Numbered from the stretch's first letter, positions 52,165 to 60,869 are shown. The stretch: 64,000 nucleotides of DNA from an uncultured Gemmatimonadales bacterium (GCA_963695555.1 CAVOGR010000003.1:1-64000); one strand, 5' to 3'. Made by a program: numbers and translations. Notes: a model not told the origin generated them from the letters alone.

Positions 52165-52847
52165 TCACAGCTCCCTCACGTAGATGTTTCGGAAATACAC
52201 CGGACTCCTGTCGTCGTGGTTCTGGAGCCCGATGTATCCCCTCGGCGCGAAGTCGGCCACCTTGCCCCGTGGCTCGGCATCCCAGTCGATCACCGTGGTA
52301 CCGTTCAGCTCGACCGTAATATGCTTTCCCTGAAACGTGATGCGGTACTTGTTCCACTCGCCGGGCGGGTTCGCGGCCTTGGCACTCGGCGCCTCCGCAT
52401 CGTAGACAGCCGCGGTCTGGTGGATTCCCTCACCGGCCTCGTTGATCTGGATCTCGAAGCTGTGATAGATGTAGTCGTCGCTCGACGGCACGCCCGGCAC
52501 TCGGAGGAAGATGCCGGAGTTGGTTTCGCGTCGGCACACTTGAACTCGAGATCCAGCACGAAGTCGCCGTATTGCTTGACCGCATACCAGAAGAGCCCCA
52601 TGCCGCCGTGCGAGGTCAGCATCCCGGTCTCCGGATCGAGGTCGAAGTAGCCCGGGCCGTAATGGTTCCAGCCGTGCTTGGAGTAGCGGCCGTCGTGCTG
52701 CTTCAGGATCTGTTCGAAGCCGTCTTGCATGGTTGCATCCTCTTGGATGGCCGGCACCACGGGGGTCGCATCCGGCCGGCCATGGCCCGGTAGACCACGA
52801 GCGCGAAGCCACCCCTAGACACCGACAAGTACCAGCAGTCGTCGCAT
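52165..52847 (-). CDS. DUF1080 / 3-keto-disaccharide hydrolase family, secreted (frameshifted)
   Basis: YGDFVLDLEFK, NSGIFLR, FEIQI, GEWNKYRI, VELNG, GYIGLQNHD and VYFRNI; reconstructed start MRRLLVLVG. Confidence 0.85.
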
Positions 52848-52891
52848 CTGATTTCACTCGACATAAGATTGGTTGGACAGGCAGCGGCCGG

Positions 52892-54153
52892 TCACTTCGG
52901 CCGGGTTCCACTCCCCCCGCGCCACGGCGGGCACGAACGACTCGAGCTCCGGCGGCGGGAAAGGCGATGGTCTTCTCCTGCTCGGCGCTCATGTAGGCCG
53001 TCATAAGCAGCTCGGCCACGTTGACGCCGTCGCCGAAGTTCTCGCTCGGGCGCTCACCCGGCGAGGAACGACCGGACCATGTGGCGGTTCTCGCCCGATG
53101 TAGCCGTACTCGGCCTCCTCGTCGCTCACGATCGGCATGAGCCCCATTTCGGCGTTCTGCTTCTCGACCAGGTCTTCGCCGGCATCGACCCTGACCTCCC
53201 GGCTGAAGAAGACCTTGGGCCCGGCATCCAGCGTGTTGATCGACATCGAGTACTCGGGCCCCAGCAGCTCCATGCTCAGACGCAGGCCGGCGCCGACGAA
53301 GCACCACGAGGTCGTCGCCTCGACGATCCGCTCGTTCCCGTCGGCATCGCGGTACTCCACCAACGCGCGGGCGAAGTCCTCCGCGGGGCGGTTGACGTAG
53401 TCGGTCTTGCCGCCGCTCCGCTCGGCCAGGATGTCGGCGTAGTGCGGCTGCTGCCACTTCAGACACGAGGTGTAGGCCGTGACCTTGACCGGCGTCAGCG
53501 CGCTCCTCGGCGCGCCGGGCGGCGTCGAGCAGAAACCGCGCCACCTCCACCGAGTGGCACATCATGTCGTTCAGCACACCGCCGCCCTGGAGCTCCCCGT
53601 CCCAGAACCACGGCATGTGCGGCCCGCTGTGCTCCTCCGCCGCGCGCGCCAGGTAGGGTCGGCCCGGTCGAGCGCCGCACCGCGGCTCCAGACGATCTCC
53701 TTGCCGCGCACCACGCCCGGGCGAGAAGAGCTGGTTCTCGAGGTAGCCGTCGAGCAGGCCGACCTGCTGGACCAGCTCGAGCATCCTGCGCGCTTCCGCG
53801 GCGTTGCGTCCGAGCGGCTTCTCGCACGCCACACCCGACGCAGCTCGCCCTTGCCGGACTCGATGGCGTCGGACGATCTCCTCCATCACCTCGACCCGGG
53901 TGAAGTTGGGCGAGCAGATCCAGAGTGCGTCGATGCCGGGATCGGCCACCATCTCGGTGACCGAGCGATAGACCTGGGCGTCGCCGACGCCGAGCTTGCG
54001 CGCCAGGCGCCGCCGCCTCTCGCGCCGTCTCCATCGCGCCGACTCACGACGCCGAGCACGTCCGCGTTCCGCACGCCCACGAACGAGCGGATATGAAAGC
54101 GGCTCGACGAATCCACCGCCGACGATGCCGACACCCAAGTCGCCTTCTGTCAT
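52892..54153 (-). CDS. Gfo/Idh/MocA oxidoreductase, cytoplasmic (frameshifted; end approximate)
   Basis: VGIVGGGFV Rossmann motif, ACEKPLGR, YLENQ and GGGVLNDMMCH. Confidence 0.85.
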
Positions 54154-54187
54154 GCCACGTCGTCCTTTCCTTCGTTCGACTGCTCTG

Positions 54188-55435
54188 TTACCGCATCCAT
54201 ATGGCTAGGCCGCCTTCGCCTGGATTCGGCGCCGACTCCTCGCGGAAGAAGAGCAGGAACGCCACCGCACACACGACCGTCAGGGCACACGGGCACCAGG
54301 AACACGTAGGTCCAGTTGGTGCCTCCGGTCGTGGTGAACAGGTCACGGATCTTGCCCGGCGAAGAGGCTGCCCAGGAACCGCCCGAGCCCGAGCGCGACG
54401 ATGGCGATGAGGCTCTGCGCCGAGGCCCGGATGTCCGGCGGTGCCACCTTGTCCACGTAGATGAAGGCCGCGACGAAGAAGAAGACGTAGCAGAAGCCGT
54501 GCGAGCGCCAGCGAGGCGATCACCAGCCAGGCGGGCGCTGCCGATCGCAGAAGATCACGTAGCGGATCGGCCAGGCGATGACGCCGAAGGCCAGCGTCTT
54601 CCGCATGCCGTACTTCTTCAGGAAGCGCGACAGCAGGAACGCCATGACGAAGATCTCGGCGAGCTGCGCCGATGGTCATCACCCACGGCGACCCAGGTGC
54701 TCGACACGCCGATCTGTCCGACTCGAGGAACGGCGCCGTCAGGATGTAGTAGAACTCGCAGCTCGGTCGCGACCACGAAGGTGATGCCGACGAAGATGGC
54801 GAACTGCTTCGCCTTGAGCATCTTGAGCGATTCGAGGAACGCCCACGGCTTGACCCCCTCCTTCTGCGGGCGGCGTGTGCGGCAGGGTGAACGACTGCAC
54901 GCCCATGATGAGCGAGGCGACGCCGGCCAGCAGCAGCATGTCGCCCGCGCACCGACGGAGCACCGTGGCCGGTCCGCCAGCCAGCGCCAGCCGGTGAGCG
55001 TCCACCCGGCCGCGATCCACCCGAGCGTGCCCCACACGCGAATCCCGCCGAACTCCTCCTCGGAGTCCTTCAGGTTGATCATGGCGATGGAATTGGTGAG
55101 CGCCAGCGTCGGGGCATAGAGCAGGCAGTAGACCAGCATCAGCCCGAACATCAAGCCGTAGTCGGTCGTCCGCGGACGACCGCGATCAGCAGGATGCCCC
55201 CGGTGAACGCCAGAAACCCGATCACCTTCTCGGAGGCGAAGTACCGATCCGCCAGCTGCCCGCCGATGAACGGCGCGATGATCGTCGCCAGCGGCAGCAG
55301 GGCGTAGATCCAGCCGACCTGCCCGCCGCTCATGCCGAGGTCGTTGATCAGATACGACGACAGCACCGGGGCCCACGCGCCCCAGATGGCGTACTGCAGG
55401 AACATCATCATGCCGAGCCGGGTCTTGGAGCTCAC
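54188..55435 (-). CDS. MFS transporter, NupG/XapB-like (frameshifted)
   Basis: MMFLQYAIWGAW, APFIGGQLADRYF, YAPTLALTNS, IRVWGTLGWI and LPHTPP. Confidence 0.85.
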
Positions 55436-57042
55436 ACGATCCTCCGCGCGATCGGATCCCACTCGACCTTCCGGCCTTCGAGATACGACCGGGTGGCCAT
55501 GTGACAGGTAATGGCTTCCTCGAAGCCCCGGTCGATGTTGCAGCTCGTCTCACCGCCGTTGCGGATGACGTCCAGCCACTCGGCGATATTGCAGGTGATA
55601 GGCCGACACCCGCCGCCCGCCGCGGTAGGTGTAGAGCAGACCGCGGGTCACGAAGTACTCCTCGGTCGCCGAGGTCACGGCGTCGATGCCCTTGAACCCG
55701 GGTCGATACGTGAACATCGGCCGGGAGGTGTTGATGACGCCGTCCTTGATCTTCTTCTCGTAGCGGGTCGACTCGCCGTCGGCCGTCACGGTCAGGTCGC
55801 CGCTCACCCGCATGGACGCGTCGTGTCCCATGAACATGAGCCCGCGGTAGTTGCCGTTGGCCAGCGTCGCGCTGTAGACGAAGGTGAGGTCGCGGTCCGG
55901 ATACTCGTAGACCGCCTGGAACACGTCCGGCACGTCGCGTCCGTCCTTGAAGTAGTAGATCCCCCCGGAGGCGACCGCCGACTTTGGTATGCCCACCTGG
56001 AGGATCTGATTCACCCCGTCGTATTCGTGTGACAGCAGATCACCCGCGAGTCCGGTGCCGTAGTCGTACCAGCACCGCCACCGGAAGAACCGCTCGAGGC
56101 TGAACGGCACCTTATTGGGGGCGGGGCCCTGGAACAGCTCCCAGTCGATCGTCTGGGGGTTCCCCTCCTCGTGGATGTCCCACACCCAGGCGCCCCACGG
56201 CGAGTTCCGGTTGGTGGTGCCCTCGACCAGCGTGATCGGGACCCAGAATGTTGGCCTCGATGACCTCTCGGGCCTTGTTGTGCGCCTCGGACTGGCGATT
56301 CTGGTGGCCGAGCTGGAAGACGATGTTGGAACTCTTGACCGCGTCGTACATGCGCGTGCGCTTCTTCTTCCGTTCGCGTCATGCACTTCTCGCAGTACAC
56401 GTGCACGCCTTCGGCCGCGGCGGCGATCGTCATCCGCGAGTGCCAGTGATCGGGCGTCGCGATGATCACCGCGTCCACGTCGCCACTCTGCAGCAGGTCG
56501 CCGTAGTGGCGGTATCGCTTGGCGGGCTGCCGGGCGCTACCGGCTCCCGGCCGCGCCTCCACCGTCGAGGCGGCGATTCCACGCTCGGCTCGCACGTCGA
56601 ACACGTCGCACACGGCCGTGATCGCGACGTTCAGGTCGTCCTGGCCGAGATAGGTCACCAGGGCCTTGTTGCGCGGGTTCTTCCGCGCCTCCTCACGCTG
56701 CTCTTCCACCCAGTCGGGATGGGCGAATCCGGCGTGCCGGACCAGGGACTCCCCCTCCCCGCCGAACCCGATGATGCCGACCCGTACCCGCTGACTGGGT
56801 GGTCGCGACATCGCGTCCTTGATGAACGCCGGCCCTCCCTCGGTCACGCCCAGCTCCTCGAGGATCGCACGCTTCTTGGCGTCCTCGATCGATTTCTTCT
56901 CGAGATAGCTGTAGGCGAAGGCCCCAACGAAGGGGACTGAGACCAGCGCCTTGAGCAGTCCGCGGCGGCTCAGCCCCGCCGGCGGCGAGGGCGGAGGCGG
57001 GGTCTGGGGCTCGCTCTGATCGGTCGTGCGTTCGTCGGTCAT
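55432..57042 (-). CDS. Gfo/Idh/MocA oxidoreductase with Tat-type anchor and candidate flavinylation motif (frameshifted)
   Basis: SRRGLLK plus hydrophobic stretch; GIIGFGGEG; ATPDHWH; YCEKC; WRCWYDYGTGLAGDLLSH; DAVTSAT near the C-terminus. Confidence 0.85.
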
Positions 57043-57054
57043 CGTCGCGTCTCC

Positions 57055-57594
57055 TCAGGCCCGGGCCTGCTGCTGGGTCAAGTCTTCACTGCCGCGATTC
57101 CACGGCACGAGCCGGTCCAGTCCCCACAGCTTACCGGTCGGGAACGCGAGGAGTACGGCCAGCGCCACCATTTCGATCAGGACCTTGTTTACGACCAGGT
57201 AGCTGCCTTCGGTCGGCATGCCATAGCTGTAGCCGACGAACGGCGGGGCGGCGACGTAGTACAGGAACAGGAGCACGATCCCGGCGACGGTGGCGGTCCG
57301 GGTGAAGAGTCCGAACATGAGGCCGAGCCCGATCAAGAGCAGTCCCCAGGCATTCAGGTAATCGACCACCGTGAGGAGCGTCGGGTTGGCGGCGATGTCC
57401 AGGAAGACACTACTGAACCACCACTTGGATTCCGCCAGGTACCCGGCTGACGTCCAATACGGGTTCGTCAGCTTGGCCAGACCCTCGTAGGTGAAGTGCC
57501 AGCCGATGAGGATTCTGAGGACTACCAGCGTCGTGGTCTGGAATCGCGAGTATCCTCGCATCCCCCAGGTTCCAACTGTCTCGCCTCGCATCAT
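57055..57594 (-). CDS. DoxX/DoxD family membrane protein
   Basis: LRILIGWHFTYEGLAK, GLGLMFGLFTR and VNKVLIE; four TM segments. Confidence 0.85.
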   Translation of the reverse strand: MMRGETVGTWGMRGYSRFQTTTLVVLRILIGWHFTYEGLAKLTNPYWTSAGYLAESKWWFSSVFLDIAANPTLLTVVDYLNAWGLLLIGLGLMFGLFTRTATVAGIVLLFLYYVAAPPFVGYSYGMPTEGSYLVVNKVLIEMVALAVLLAFPTGKLWGLDRLVPWNRGSEDLTQQQARA

Positions 57595-58645
57595 GCCTCC
57601 GCCGCTTCCACGTTATCGGCCGGCGCACTCCTCCAGCCACGGGACCGGACCTGCTGCCCGTCCCGATCGATGATCAGACATTCACAATCCGGCAACTCGT
57701 CCACGAACCGAACGCCCTGTGCTGGCCCCATCACGAAGACGGTCGTGGCCAGTGCGTCCGCCGCCATGGTCGACGGCGCCACGACCGACACGCTCGCGCA
57801 CTCGTTGGGTGAGCGTCCAGTAGTCGCGCTCACGATATGATGCACCAGGCGATCGCGGTCGAAGTAGATCTCGTAGCTGCCCGAGGTGGCCACGGCGCCG
57901 TCGGTCAGGTGAATCGTGTCGGGGTAACTCCCGTCCTTGGTGGGATTCTGGACCGCTACCGTCCACGGACGTCGCTCTTCTTTGGTTCCGGACGTCCGGA
58001 TGTCGCCACCGGCGTTGATCAGGTAGTTGTCGAGCTTGTGCCGCCCGAGCACACCGGCGATGGCATCGACGATGTAGCCCTTGGCGATGCCGTCCAACGT
58101 GATGGCCATGCCGGGCCGCTCGAAGTCGACCCGTGTGCCGGTCACGTCGAATGTGCGCCGCACCGACCAGGTCGAGTGCCTCCCGGAGCTCCGCCGCCGA
58201 CGGCTCCGCGGGCACCAAGGCGGTCATCCGCTCTCTGAAGAGGTCGACGACCGGCGCCACCGAAATGTCGAACGCGCCCCGACTCAGCTGGTGGATCGCG
58301 TGTGACCGGGAGAGCACGTGGAGAAACTCGGGTGGTGCTCCGTCGATCCGCCCGACGTCGTTGAGATACATGATGGCGGAGGCCGAGTCGTATCGGCTGA
58401 AGATGGCGATCAGCCGATCCATCTCGTCGAACGCCCGGCCGATCGCCTCTTCGGCGCGGTGCTGAGAGGGCGCGAGCACCGATACCGCCACGACGGTTCC
58501 CATGGCGGCACGGCTCTGGGTGACCTTGTAGGTCCGACGACTCAGGCGGACGGCTGCGGTGGTGACCGGTGACGGCGTCCACGCGCTCGAAGCCCAGCCG
58601 CTGGAGGGCGGCGAGCTTGCCTCGGATATGCGCTGTCTCGTGCAT
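57591..58645 (-). CDS. apbE: FAD:protein FMN transferase (frameshifted)
   Basis: [47 protein letters not shown] and ADALAT. Confidence 0.92.
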
Positions 58646-58708
58646 GAATGCTCGAGGTTGCGACTGGGTGATGGGATGTTGCGAATATACGACTAAACGG
58701 CGTGTCGG

Positions 58709-59650
58709 CTAGCGGTATTGTCCTTCCAGTGAGCTCCGGACGCGCTCGAGCAGTGCCTTGGTCGCCCGGATGCCGTCCGGCTCGCTCAACGCCTGTCCTT
58801 CGTACTCGATGCCGATGTGGCCACGGTACCCGGCGTCGAGGACGACCCGGAGCATCCGCGTGGAAGTCCGTCTCGACCACGTTGCCGGACGGGTCGAAGT
58901 CATAGGACTTGGCGCTCACCGCCTTGGCAAACGGCATGAGCTCCGCCACGCCCTGGTAGCGGTCGTACCACTCGTCCTCGGCCAGCTTGAAGTTGCCGAA
59001 GTCCGGCAGCGTGCCGCAGCGGGGGTGATCCACCGCTGGATGACGCTCGCGAGCCAGGCCCCGTTCGACGAGAGGCCGCCGTGGTTCTCCACGAGGACGT
59101 TGATCTCACGCTGCGGCGGCGAATTCGGTGAGCCGGCGGAGCCCATCGGCGGCCAGCCGGCGCTGTTCGTCAGGTGAGCCTGCCGACTGGGCGTTGACCC
59201 GGATCGAGTGGCATCCCAGGAACTGTGCCGCGTCCACCCAGCGATAGTGGTTCTCGACCGCCGTGCGCTACGGGCCGCGTCGTCTGGATCGCCAATGGCA
59301 CCCTCGCCGTCGCACATGATGAGGAGGTTGGCGACGCCGTGGTCCTGAGCCCGGTCCTTGAGCTCCTGCAGATAGGCCCGGTCCTGTGCCTTGTCCTTGA
59401 AGAAGGAATTGACGTACTCGACGGCCTCGATCCCGTAGTCGCGGTGCGCGGTTGCCGGGAAGTCGAGGTTGTCGAGCTCCCCGGCGTACAGTGCCCGATG
59501 GAGCGACCACTGGGCGAGCGATATCCGGAAGAGCGGTTCGTCGCGGGTCCGGGTGCATGAAAGCAGCGTCAGCGGCTCGAGCAAGCCCAGCGCGGGCAGA
59601 ATGCCCCCGGAGATTTCAACGAATCGACGACGGGACAACGGCTGCGACAC
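58709..59650 (-). CDS. Sugar-phosphate isomerase/epimerase (xylose-isomerase-like TIM barrel) with Tat signal (frameshifted)
   Basis: SRRRFV Tat motif; [48 protein letters not shown] and GIEYEG. Confidence 0.85.
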
Positions 59651-59658
59651 CGAGGCCT

Positions 59659-59906: not shown

Positions 59907-60869
59907 TTACTTGACCACGGTGAGCCCGAACGGCATGTCGAACCGTCCCACCTCGGTCACTTGCGGCTTCCCCTTGGTCGGCAGCTGGCAGAGGATCGCG
60001 GATGTGCCCTCGAGCGTCCAGGTGATGCCGTCGAGGGCATGAGCCAGCGTCAACCGGTTTCCTGTCACGTCATTATTCTCGCAATCAAAGCCGAACCTGA
60101 GGAACCAGTTGAAGCCCTTGCCGCTCGCATCGGGCCGGACCCAGGTCACCTGGGCGCGGGTGGTCGTGGTGCTTCCCGGAACCATCAAGAGGGGCTCCAC
60201 GCCAGGATCGGCCGTGCTGAAATAGCCGTCGTCGCACACATCGGCAGGCAGTCCTGGCTGATCGGGGAAATCGAAGCAGAACTTGCGGTCGCTGGTGGCG
60301 ACGCGTGCATCCACGAACAGATTACCGATCGCGAGGATGACGGCGTCGGTATACGCGCCGGCCGAATCGCTCATGACACCGTCGCCCGCTGCGTCGCGGA
60401 AGGTGGCGCTCACCGGTGTGTCGCTGGGTGCTCCCTTCTGCTTCACGCTGAAGAGTTCGGACCCGATCCCTTTCTTGCCTCGAAACGTCATGACCTCGAC
60501 GTCGTACAGGGCCACGTCGGCCTCGAGCGGGATCTTGATGTGCGCCTTGAGCCGAGTGTCATCGACGAACGTCGTCGAATCGACGGTGACGAGGGACGTG
60601 CCTCCCGGTAAGACCCAGCTGGCCTCCGAGCCATCGTCGAACCCCGACCCTATGACGTCCACTGTCAGCATCGTGTCCTGCGGTGCCTCGCTGGGATCGG
60701 CCTGGTCCACGTTCACCTTGACACCCGGGCCGCCGCCGCCGCCCTTGGCGGCGAGTATGGCGGTGTCAGTCGGGCTGGTCGGCTGCGATTCGGTGCAGGC
60801 CAGGAGGCCAACCACCAGCCACCCAACGGCCACCATGCCGCGATATGGAAGAAGATGCCGCTTCGTCAT
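59907..60869 (-). CDS. Lipoprotein with Ig/IPT-like domain
   Basis: LLAC lipobox; Gly linker; DPSEAPQ...VIGSGF...YDVEV Ig-like pattern; GGGAGG RBS. Confidence 0.75.
   Translation of the reverse strand: MTKRHLLPYRGMVAVGWLVVGLLACTESQPTSPTDTAILAAKGGGGGPGVKVNVDQADPSEAPQDTMLTVDVIGSGFDDGSEASWVLPGGTSLVTVDSTTFVDDTRLKAHIKIPLEADVALYDVEVMTFRGKKGIGSELFSVKQKGAPSDTPVSATFRDAAGDGVMSDSAGAYTDAVILAIGNLFVDARVATSDRKFCFDFPDQPGLPADVCDDGYFSTADPGVEPLLMVPGSTTTTRAQVTWVRPDASGKGFNWFLRFGFDCENNDVTGNRLTLAHALDGITWTLEGTSAILCQLPTKGKPQVTEVGRFDMPFGLTVVK

Follow-up and report, generated by a model that had tools for sequence, protein, structure and literature searches.

Several families of extracytosolic proteins carry flavin mononucleotide (FMN) that is attached by the transferase ApbE. 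They include the FMN_bind domains of NqrC, RnfG, NosR and PplA, the NqrB/RnfD proteins, DUF2271 and DUF3570 (main text of Meheust et al. 2021, PMC8238504), as well as FMN_red and Flavodoxin_4 (main text of the preprint of Huang et al. 2024, 10.1101/2024.03.13.584918). An apbE gene in the cluster, a heptad that runs from Asp to Thr or Ser (D...T/S), a site that is extracytosolic (for our protein, by prediction) and a membrane partner are common to these systems and to the locus that we describe here. It lies in a 64,000-nucleotide stretch of DNA from an uncultured Gemmatimonadales bacterium (GCA_963695555.1, CAVOGR010000003.1:1-64000; this whole stretch is referred to as the window). On the minus strand, three genes that follow one another, apbE, doxX and a gene of the Gfo/Idh/MocA family (hereafter gfo), probably encode a respiratory-type sugar dehydrogenase module. 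The logic is the one by which DUF2271, DUF3570, FMN_red and Flavodoxin_4 were discovered from apbE neighborhoods in the main texts of the same two papers. The candidate differs from the known ApbE clients in its host, which is a NAD(P)-binding Rossmann dehydrogenase rather than a flavin-binding domain, in the fifth heptad position, which is mostly Ser, and in its membrane partner, DoxX. Judged from the sequence, the ApbE-based extracytosolic electron transfer would be of a known kind, and a nicotinamide-dependent Rossmann dehydrogenase as the host, with DoxX as its partner, would be new.

The closest described dehydrogenases are the Alistipes glucoside-3-dehydrogenase AL3 (PDB 8tdf/8tdh) and BT2158 (NF058561). 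They share with our protein the Gfo/Idh/MocA fold, a twin-arginine N-terminus and neighboring genes for a DUF1080 protein, a TIM barrel and a second Gfo. The resemblance is distant. The best solved match in a Foldseek search was 8tdf_A (E 2e-19, 19% identity), followed by levoglucosan dehydrogenase, and the top matches were all members of the Gfo/Idh/MocA family. The best NCBIfam match was BT_2158_fam (NF058561), with 121.2 bits over residues 168-380 only, against an equivalog cut-off of 750, and the dehydrogenase is not a member of this family, although it is the nearest named one. BT2158 has been proposed to hold NAD(P) tightly and to pass its electrons to an 'as yet unidentified sugar', not to a quinone (Liu et al. 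2021, PMC8121099, in the part on the electron sink). The NAD(P) of a periplasmic Gfo-type enzyme cannot exchange with the cytoplasmic pool, and the way in which such an enzyme disposes of its electrons is an acknowledged gap. Another periplasmic enzyme of the Gfo family that is exported through twin-arginine translocation (Tat) and has a tightly bound nicotinamide cofactor is the glucose-fructose oxidoreductase of Zymomonas (as cited in PMC8121099). That enzyme differs from ours in that NADP is recycled by a sugar-to-sugar ping-pong, and it is not known to have a flavin, a membrane anchor or DoxX. The FAD- or cytochrome c-linked glucoside 3-dehydrogenases of the LacABC/ThuAB type are alike in that they oxidize glycosides at C3 in the periplasm and feed respiration (PMC8121099, where it treats them). 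They differ in having unrelated folds and cofactors, and cytochrome c instead of DoxX.

On the side of DoxX, the thiosulfate:quinone oxidoreductase DoxDA of Acidianus and the hydroxyhydroquinone dehydrogenase BtdLS of Aromatoleum anaerobium place a small four-helix DoxX/DoxD protein beside a catalytic subunit and are quinone-linked (PMC10084136, in the passages that discuss these proteins). The present system differs from DoxDA in that the conserved partner is a Gfo protein and no DoxA was seen, although no search aimed at it was made. If BtdL is of the Gfo type, it is a precedent for the pairing of Gfo with DoxX, not for the flavin.

A preliminary description of the window had stated that no flavinylated Gfo/Idh/MocA protein was known, and this holds within the accessible literature that we searched, from which subscription journals were mostly missing. 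We found no paper there that treats DoxX together with either ApbE or the Gfo/Idh/MocA family, and this family is not mentioned in the 20 listed of 39 papers on flavinylation or ApbE. Among the papers listed for DoxX in connection with periplasmic FMN there was nothing relevant, as judged by title and the start of the abstract. The terms DoxX and GFO have no occurrence in the main texts of PMC8238504 and 10.1101/2024.03.13.584918, and the large supplementary tables of the former may list such clusters.

The list of open reading frames (ORFs) and a Pfam scan place the three genes head to tail, in the order apbE, doxX, gfo, with these features:

57591..58645, minus strand: apbE, FAD:protein FMN transferase; PF02424 on both large pieces; three frames; no signal peptide
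57055..57594, minus strand: doxX, intact, a 179-aa membrane protein; PF07681, 33.8 bits; four hydrophobic stretches in the alignment
55432..57042, minus strand: gfo, Gfo/Idh/MocA dehydrogenase from the clade linked to DoxX, some 535 aa if the breaks are read through; PF01408, PF22725 and PF19051; four frame pieces
56902..56970, minus strand: putative twin-arginine signal-anchor, SRRGLLK and then a hydrophobic helix, from the sequence; no evident cleavage motif
55664..55684, minus strand: DAVTSAT, candidate heptad for flavinylation by ApbE; its last codon, 55664-55666, encodes the Thr that is proposed to bear FMN

The stop of apbE and the start of doxX overlap by 4 nt (57591-57594), and 12 nt (57043-57054) separate the stop of doxX from the start of gfo. 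This tight coupling was found as the preliminary description had claimed it, and so was the Tat-like anchor, which reads LSRRGLLKAL after residue 24 and is followed by a hydrophobic helix. The heptad lies within GIDAVTSATEE (55658-55690). Its motif and coordinates had been given correctly, but it is not part of an extra C-terminal segment, as had been thought; it lies in an insertion within the C-terminal domain, and the usual Gfo/Idh/MocA C-terminus, some 75 residues, comes after it.

The heptad is kept well beyond the window. A word-indexed search with the motif-bearing fragment gave 3163 relatives, and in each of the best 120 of these 3163 (80-91% identical, about 530 aa) the pattern G-x-D-x-x-[ST]-x-A-[ST] is kept in register. 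Cluster representatives were also scanned in full with HMMER; here the heptad was kept down to about 38% identity and was absent from more distant proteins with a homologous loop. The loop of the clade can be written D-x-x-[TSA]-[STG]-[AP]-[TS]. Among the 60 complete loops that we obtained from 61 loci, position 1 is always D, position 4 is A in three, position 5 is S in 49, T in nine and G in two, position 6 is A in 55 and P in five, and position 7 is T in 58 and S in two. The published consensus for ApbE is D-x-x-[S/T]-G-A-[S/T], with the last residue as the acceptor, and changes of G to A and of A to V lower flavinylation (PMC12052999, in its account of the motif). That the window has S in place of the consensus G had been pointed out before; this was borne out, and it is the rule in the clade. 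The canonical G form occurs in L039, L104, P0138 and P0141, as DAVTGAT or, in P0138 and P0141, as DAVSGAT. By an estimate from typical residue frequencies, not computed with a tool, a loose heptad is expected by chance in about 1 in 100 proteins of such length. Because it is kept in 120 of 120 close homologs and in all 60 complete loops, the match is more than chance. A second class of the window's phylum, that of family f10, has a variant whose first residue is E instead of D, E-A-[VI]-T-[SA]-A-T (EAITSAT, EAVTSAT or EAITAAT). In this family (L112-L123) the gene is often tandem-duplicated, or there is a second copy that has no doxX beside it, and apbE does not adjoin the gene; four extra paralogs of f10, two in tandem and two elsewhere, bear the motif without a doxX of their own.

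The heptad goes together with doxX. We compared 80 loci from a species-level genome collection, 42 in the clade of the window's dehydrogenase and 38 others. By their record titles, the 42 clade loci belong to Bacteroidota, Neomarinimicrobiota, Aminicenantes, Gemmatimonadota and one gammaproteobacterial metagenome-assembled genome (MAG). With carriers in all of these, gut genera of the Bacteroidota included, the module is not a one-genome curiosity. In all 42 doxX adjoins gfo, within 92 nt in 41 and at 955 nt in one. No doxX was found in the other 38 of the 80 loci, and no such heptad anywhere in their 37 called paralog ORFs; for most of the doxX-less paralogs sampled, the match to the query began only near residue 135, past the anchor region. 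In the window's class, doxX adjoins gfo in 19 of 21 orthologous loci, the other two being cut at the contig end, and it is adjacent in all 10 primary loci of the f10 class. Of 63 clade loci retrieved without the f10 set, 61 have an adjacent doxX, and both exceptions are cut by contig ends. In a tree of 114 sequences (FastTree, midpoint-rooted), the genes with heptad and doxX form one clade, which does not prove the order of events, and the sister clade (L070, L071, L073 and L074) has neither heptad nor doxX. The core pair is Gfo and DoxX. Within the window's phylum, an ortholog with at least 63% identity was found in 22 of the 401 sampled genomes. Cultured carriers exist, namely Odoribacter laneus YIT 12061, Algoriphagus alkaliphilus DSM 22703, Carboxylicivirga sediminis JR1 and Prevotella sp. 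10(H).

One Bacteroidales lineage (L066-L069) has doxX downstream of gfo instead of upstream. An aldo-keto reductase gene with a Tat signal comes after doxX in L066 (9564-11011); it was checked for a heptad and set aside, as it has none and the gene is not kept in L067 or L069, while for L068 no ORF was obtained at this position.

With the window itself set aside, synteny of apbE, doxX and gfo was found in each of the 21 testable loci from its class (by their record titles, Gemmatimonadota), namely 18 of 20 orthologous loci (two are cut by contig ends), L030 and L031, and the same-genus G023. Across four families of this class, apbE sits between the TIM-barrel gene and doxX. Elsewhere, apbE lies 476 nt upstream in L059 (Bacteroidota) and 3.2 kb away in L044 (Neomarinimicrobiota). 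In Prevotella sp. 10(H), a same-strand run (L042:6064-15311) encodes a Gfo, DoxX, the Gfo with the motif, another Gfo of the Tat type, DUF1080, a TIM barrel, ApbE and TatC; this is the most complete version of the module that we saw, and it is in a cultured strain. The preliminary description had coupled the heptad with both neighbors. For doxX this stood, since heptad and doxX occur together in one clade and are absent from the sister clade and the 37 paralogs. For apbE it stood throughout the window's class and in some other phyla, but most loci outside the class have no adjacent apbE.

A second apbE locus of the window's genome lies elsewhere, beside an FMN_bind gene, and the apbE of the cluster is therefore an extra, dedicated copy. 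In genus g3, the two genomes with the ortholog are G046 (100% complete, 8 contigs) and G330. Each has a single full-length ApbE match, beside gfo; FMN_bind and DUF3570 were not found in them, nor was DUF2271 above its cut-off. Their genus-mates G004, G054, G073 and G101 are without the ortholog and without a full ApbE. Two further loci of this genus, L109 (G046:C1:246500-250500) and L110 (G046:C2:346500-350500), hold a membrane ORF that weakly resembles RnfD/NqrB (290 aa, without an SGAT motif) and a truncated lipoprotein ORF that is ApbE-like (239 aa). Among the ORFs up to 4 kb from the cluster apbE, none but gfo recurrently has a motif-like heptad with A at position 6 (17 of 20 loci); as for the rest, the gfo genes of L026 and L030 have the P variant and the gfo ORF of L027 was not recovered.

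PF02424 matches the two frame pieces of the window's apbE with E values of 1e-49 and 9e-19 (model positions 1-116 and 117-266), and the intact ApbE ortholog of L012 scores 233 bits. By comparison of orthologs, the cluster ApbE in the window's class lacks a signal peptide, and its N-terminus shows no hydrophobic stretch; lipoprotein-type signals are present on the cluster ApbEs of L059 and L044. FMN would thus be attached in the cytoplasm, before Tat export, in the window's lineage, and in the periplasm in L059 and L044. The cluster ApbEs of L009-L031 (about 58575-58645 in the window) also share a conserved N-terminal extension of about 45 residues (…KLAALExLGFERV…), which is not present in the lipoprotein-type ApbEs of L044 and L059.

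The N-terminal domain of the dehydrogenase matches PF01408 (E 5e-11, 43.8 bits against a cut-off of 24). PF22725 and PF19051 are below their curated cut-offs on the fragment in the window, and intact relatives reach them. Over 71 sequences, G93 and G95 of the GxGxxG motif are invariant and G98 nearly so, the Glu-Lys pair (E219 and K220) is invariant, and the TPDHWH block is invariant or nearly so; given this conservation, a NAD(P)-dependent dehydrogenase is expected. For folding, intact natural relatives were used as stand-ins for the window's proteins. The AlphaFold2 model of the close homolog P0004 (71-row alignment) has a predicted local distance difference test score (pLDDT) of 88.5 and a predicted template modeling score of 0.85. 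Its low-confidence parts are the N-terminus and residues 451-460 (pLDDT 56), which are the heptad loop and the only internal block of this kind; the low score fits a flexible loop. In the anchor region, R21, R22 and K26 of the R-R-x-x-L-K motif are invariant in 38 clade members, as are P32 and G35, and the model has helices at 28-36 and 38-66. An uncleaved Tat signal-anchor is the simplest reading, because no cleavage motif is evident and the model helix runs on to residue 66; the protein would then be exported.

The doxX gene is intact, and its match to PF07681 exceeds the gathering cut-off of 23.6 bits. In an alignment of 39 cluster DoxX sequences, R27, G31, W32, E37, G38, K41, G89, G95, Y113 and G130 are invariant, and the charged residues R27, E37, K41, E129 and K137 are kept within the four hydrophobic segments. 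The His that follows the invariant Trp is replaced by Tyr in four of these sequences, which argues against a heme ligand there. We folded the Gfo:DoxX pair of L012 as a complex and obtained a score of 0.55 against 0.00 for the best control, with agreement between runs in at least 64% of contacts and a partner pLDDT of at least 77. The mark for a complex was reached by 116 of 157 solved complexes and by 2 of 215 mismatched pairs, counts that hold only roughly here because the pair was folded with our own alignments; at scores of 0.60 or lower, it was reached by only 18 of the 157 solved complexes and by both of the passing mismatches. This result weakly supports a predicted pairing.

For the mechanism, we propose that folding of the Gfo/Idh/MocA protein takes place in the cytoplasm and encloses a tightly bound NAD(P). 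ApbE would join FMN by a phosphoester bond to the last Thr of the DAVTSAT loop, presumably before export because the ApbE of the window's lineage is without a signal peptide. The Tat system would then export the folded protein, and the uncleaved signal-anchor would tether it to the membrane next to DoxX. In the periplasm the enzyme would oxidize a glycoside, most likely at a ring hydroxyl as in the related glycoside 3-dehydrogenases. The loop-borne FMN would re-oxidize the bound NAD(P)H and pass the electrons to quinone at DoxX, and the keto-sugar product would be handled by the neighboring DUF1080 and TIM-barrel enzymes and the transporter of the major facilitator superfamily (MFS). More specifically, and more tentatively than the module itself, FMN on the mobile loop may act as a swinging arm that accepts the hydride of the permanently bound NAD(P)H and delivers the electrons to DoxX at a quinone site. 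We propose the quinone role of DoxX because of its strict adjacency to gfo, the quinone-linked members of its family and the weak fold result for L012. The preliminary description had suggested the same path from sugar over NAD(P), covalent FMN and DoxX to quinone. The co-occurrence of heptad and doxX and the adjacency of apbE within the class agree with it; Tat export, the FMN on the heptad Thr, the path from NAD(P)H to quinone with its direction, and the substrate are the parts that we infer.

If this proposal is true, a periplasmic dehydrogenase would have a direct wire to the quinone pool, and the oxidative cleavage of glycans outside the cytoplasm could conserve energy. It would explain how periplasmic sugar dehydrogenases that hold NAD are re-oxidized without a second sugar. 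The module would be a new class of respiratory dehydrogenase, with a NAD cofactor, a tethered FMN and DoxX, and Gfo/Idh/MocA proteins would become a new class of ApbE clients, which would bring a nicotinamide-dependent dehydrogenase onto the client list. DoxX, a very widespread membrane family, would gain a testable general role as a quinone-reducing subunit.

Several points weigh against this proposal. The covalent FMN is deduced from sequence and gene neighborhood. The window's heptad has S where the consensus has G, and G is found in only 2 of the 60 loops; for the five loops with P at position 6 and the three with A at position 4, we found no published test of such variants. Outside the Gemmatimonadota, apbE is adjacent in only 3 of 40 loci, and in the f10 class in none of 10. 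ApbE is present somewhere in 37 of the 39 genomes from outside the phylum that carry the Gfo-DoxX pair, which is compatible with a flavin and discriminates little, because ApbE is common in those phyla anyway; it was not seen in two MAGs with the pair, G401 and G407, whose completeness is not given. In G046, 'only apbE' means only full-length, and the argument from an orphan apbE in G046 and G330 is weakened by the truncated ApbE-like ORF and the weak RnfD-like ORF, neither of which has the motif. Related genomes inherit their synteny, and the loci counted are therefore not independent of one another. The ApbE of the window's class is signal-less while its putative substrate bears a Tat motif, for which attachment before export is a plausible solution. 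To our knowledge, no cofactor or quinone site is known for the cluster DoxX group.

One alternative is that the loop is structural, serving to dock DoxX or to bind the substrate, and is never flavinylated; DoxX would anchor or regulate the enzyme, and apbE would serve another client. A docking loop would co-vary with doxX as tightly as the heptad does, and the Ser at position 5 and the scarcity of adjacent apbE outside the class also suit this explanation. So does BtdS, a DoxX-family protein that is both the small subunit of another dehydrogenase and a regulator-sequestering protein (PMC10084136, in its part on BtdS). The residues that are kept are nevertheless those that the ApbE motif needs (D1, a small residue 5, A6 and T/S7; motif as given in the relevant part of PMC12052999). 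Moreover, four families of the class keep apbE in its place, with the TIM-barrel gene on one side and doxX on the other, and apbE occurs again in clusters of Bacteroidota and Neomarinimicrobiota. No other ORF near it recurrently has the motif, no known client family was found in G046 and G330, and no flavin-free enzyme is known to pass electrons from NAD(P)H to quinone. We therefore consider a purely structural loop unlikely. It is somewhat less likely again that FMN is bound as proposed and the module runs in reverse, with electrons from quinol passing over DoxX and FMN to reduce a periplasmic keto-sugar, which would complete the 3-keto-glycoside cycle or adjust how far the bound NAD(P) is reduced. 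The direction is not fixed by the sequence, several carriers are anaerobes by the genus in their record titles (Prevotella, Odoribacter, Paludibacter and Proteiniphilum), and the neighboring pathway yields 3-keto-sugars that need re-reduction (Liu et al. 2021, PMC8121099, in its part on the pathway). However, by midpoint potentials, the transfer from menaquinol or ubiquinol to NAD(P) is uphill and the oxidation of a sugar alcohol by quinone is downhill, and the second, signal-less Gfo of the same clusters could do the reduction. Finally, the catalytic domain could be cytoplasmic, with the N-terminal helix as a mere tether, the signal-less ApbE acting on the same side, and DoxX linking a dehydrogenase on the cytoplasmic face to quinone. 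The lack of a signal peptide on the ApbE of the window's class, a Lys/Arg-rich stretch after the hydrophobic helix and the adjoining MFS importer are in line with this. We regard it as improbable in view of the invariant R-R-x-x-L-K of 38 sequences, the tatC gene within the Prevotella operon, the twin-arginine N-terminus of the neighboring TIM-barrel protein, and the lipoprotein-type signals on the cluster apbE products of Bacteroidota and Neomarinimicrobiota, which are thus periplasmic enzymes. The nearest characterized relatives are Tat-exported as well (Liu et al. 2021, PMC8121099, where export is discussed).

The window also raises the question of whether the operon is a decaying pseudogene cluster, as there are five frameshifts in the two genes apbE and gfo, and more in their neighbors. 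The preliminary description had mentioned frameshifts, and the window does contain them. Three are in gfo (one extra base each at 56353/4, 56237 and 55592) and two in apbE (one extra base each near 58574 and at 58146-58149). We compared the window with contigs of four public short-read runs, which come from relatives that are 90-99% alike and of which one is an RNA library. At all five breaks, the extra base is missing in the contigs of 1 to 3 of the 4 runs, so the breaks are errors of the assembly and not signs of decay. The frame pieces have 58-91% identity to the intact proteins of L012 and no internal stops (tblastn); the intact L012 ApbE, used as a query, is covered from residue 29 to 370 in three frames, and in a search of the window's own genome four collinear gfo pieces span residues 1-532 of P0064. 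The error pattern is the same across the whole window, in an assembly of 3.57 Mb and 14 contigs that looks like an unpolished long-read MAG, in which fragmented gene calls are expected throughout. The frameshifts are best read as insertion errors, and the genes are intact in related populations. A pseudogene cluster is practically excluded by the short-read contigs, and we give it next to no weight. Nearly every gene of the stretch is broken by frameshifts, including those of the sugar cluster (52165-59653). Contigs of the metatranscriptome library X1 cover 29 of 30 bins of the stretch at 90-99% likeness; these contigs are those of relatives and such libraries can hold DNA, so the coverage is no proof of transcription.

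The three genes are flanked by further genes on the same strand:

58727..59653, minus strand: TIM-barrel protein, xylose-isomerase-like, with a twin-arginine N-terminus; directly upstream of apbE; from the ORF translation and tblastn with the L012 ortholog (Pfam AP_endonuc_2)
54200..55462, minus strand: MFS transporter of the Nuc_H_symport type, frameshifted; directly downstream of gfo; PF03825 on two pieces, and tblastn with the L024 ortholog
52165..54153, minus strand: second Gfo/Idh/MocA region without signal sequence, plus DUF1080 (3-keto-disaccharide hydrolase), frameshifted; PF01408, PF22725 and PF06439; tblastn with the 588-aa L024 ortholog gives four frame pieces

Across phyla, the pair is repeatedly accompanied by a second Gfo, DUF1080, the TIM barrel, the MFS transporter and glycoside hydrolases, and these neighbors are genes of the 3-keto-glycoside pathway. 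In a Neomarinimicrobiota MAG (L033:3853-7455), genes for the beta and alpha subunits of an electron-transfer flavoprotein and for an oxidoreductase with Fe-S/CCG domains lie directly upstream of doxX-gfo; they are another quinone-linked electron-entry system beside the module. Just upstream of the sugar cluster in the window, at 59907-60869 on the minus strand, there is a 320-aa ORF with a signal or lipoprotein-like N-terminus.

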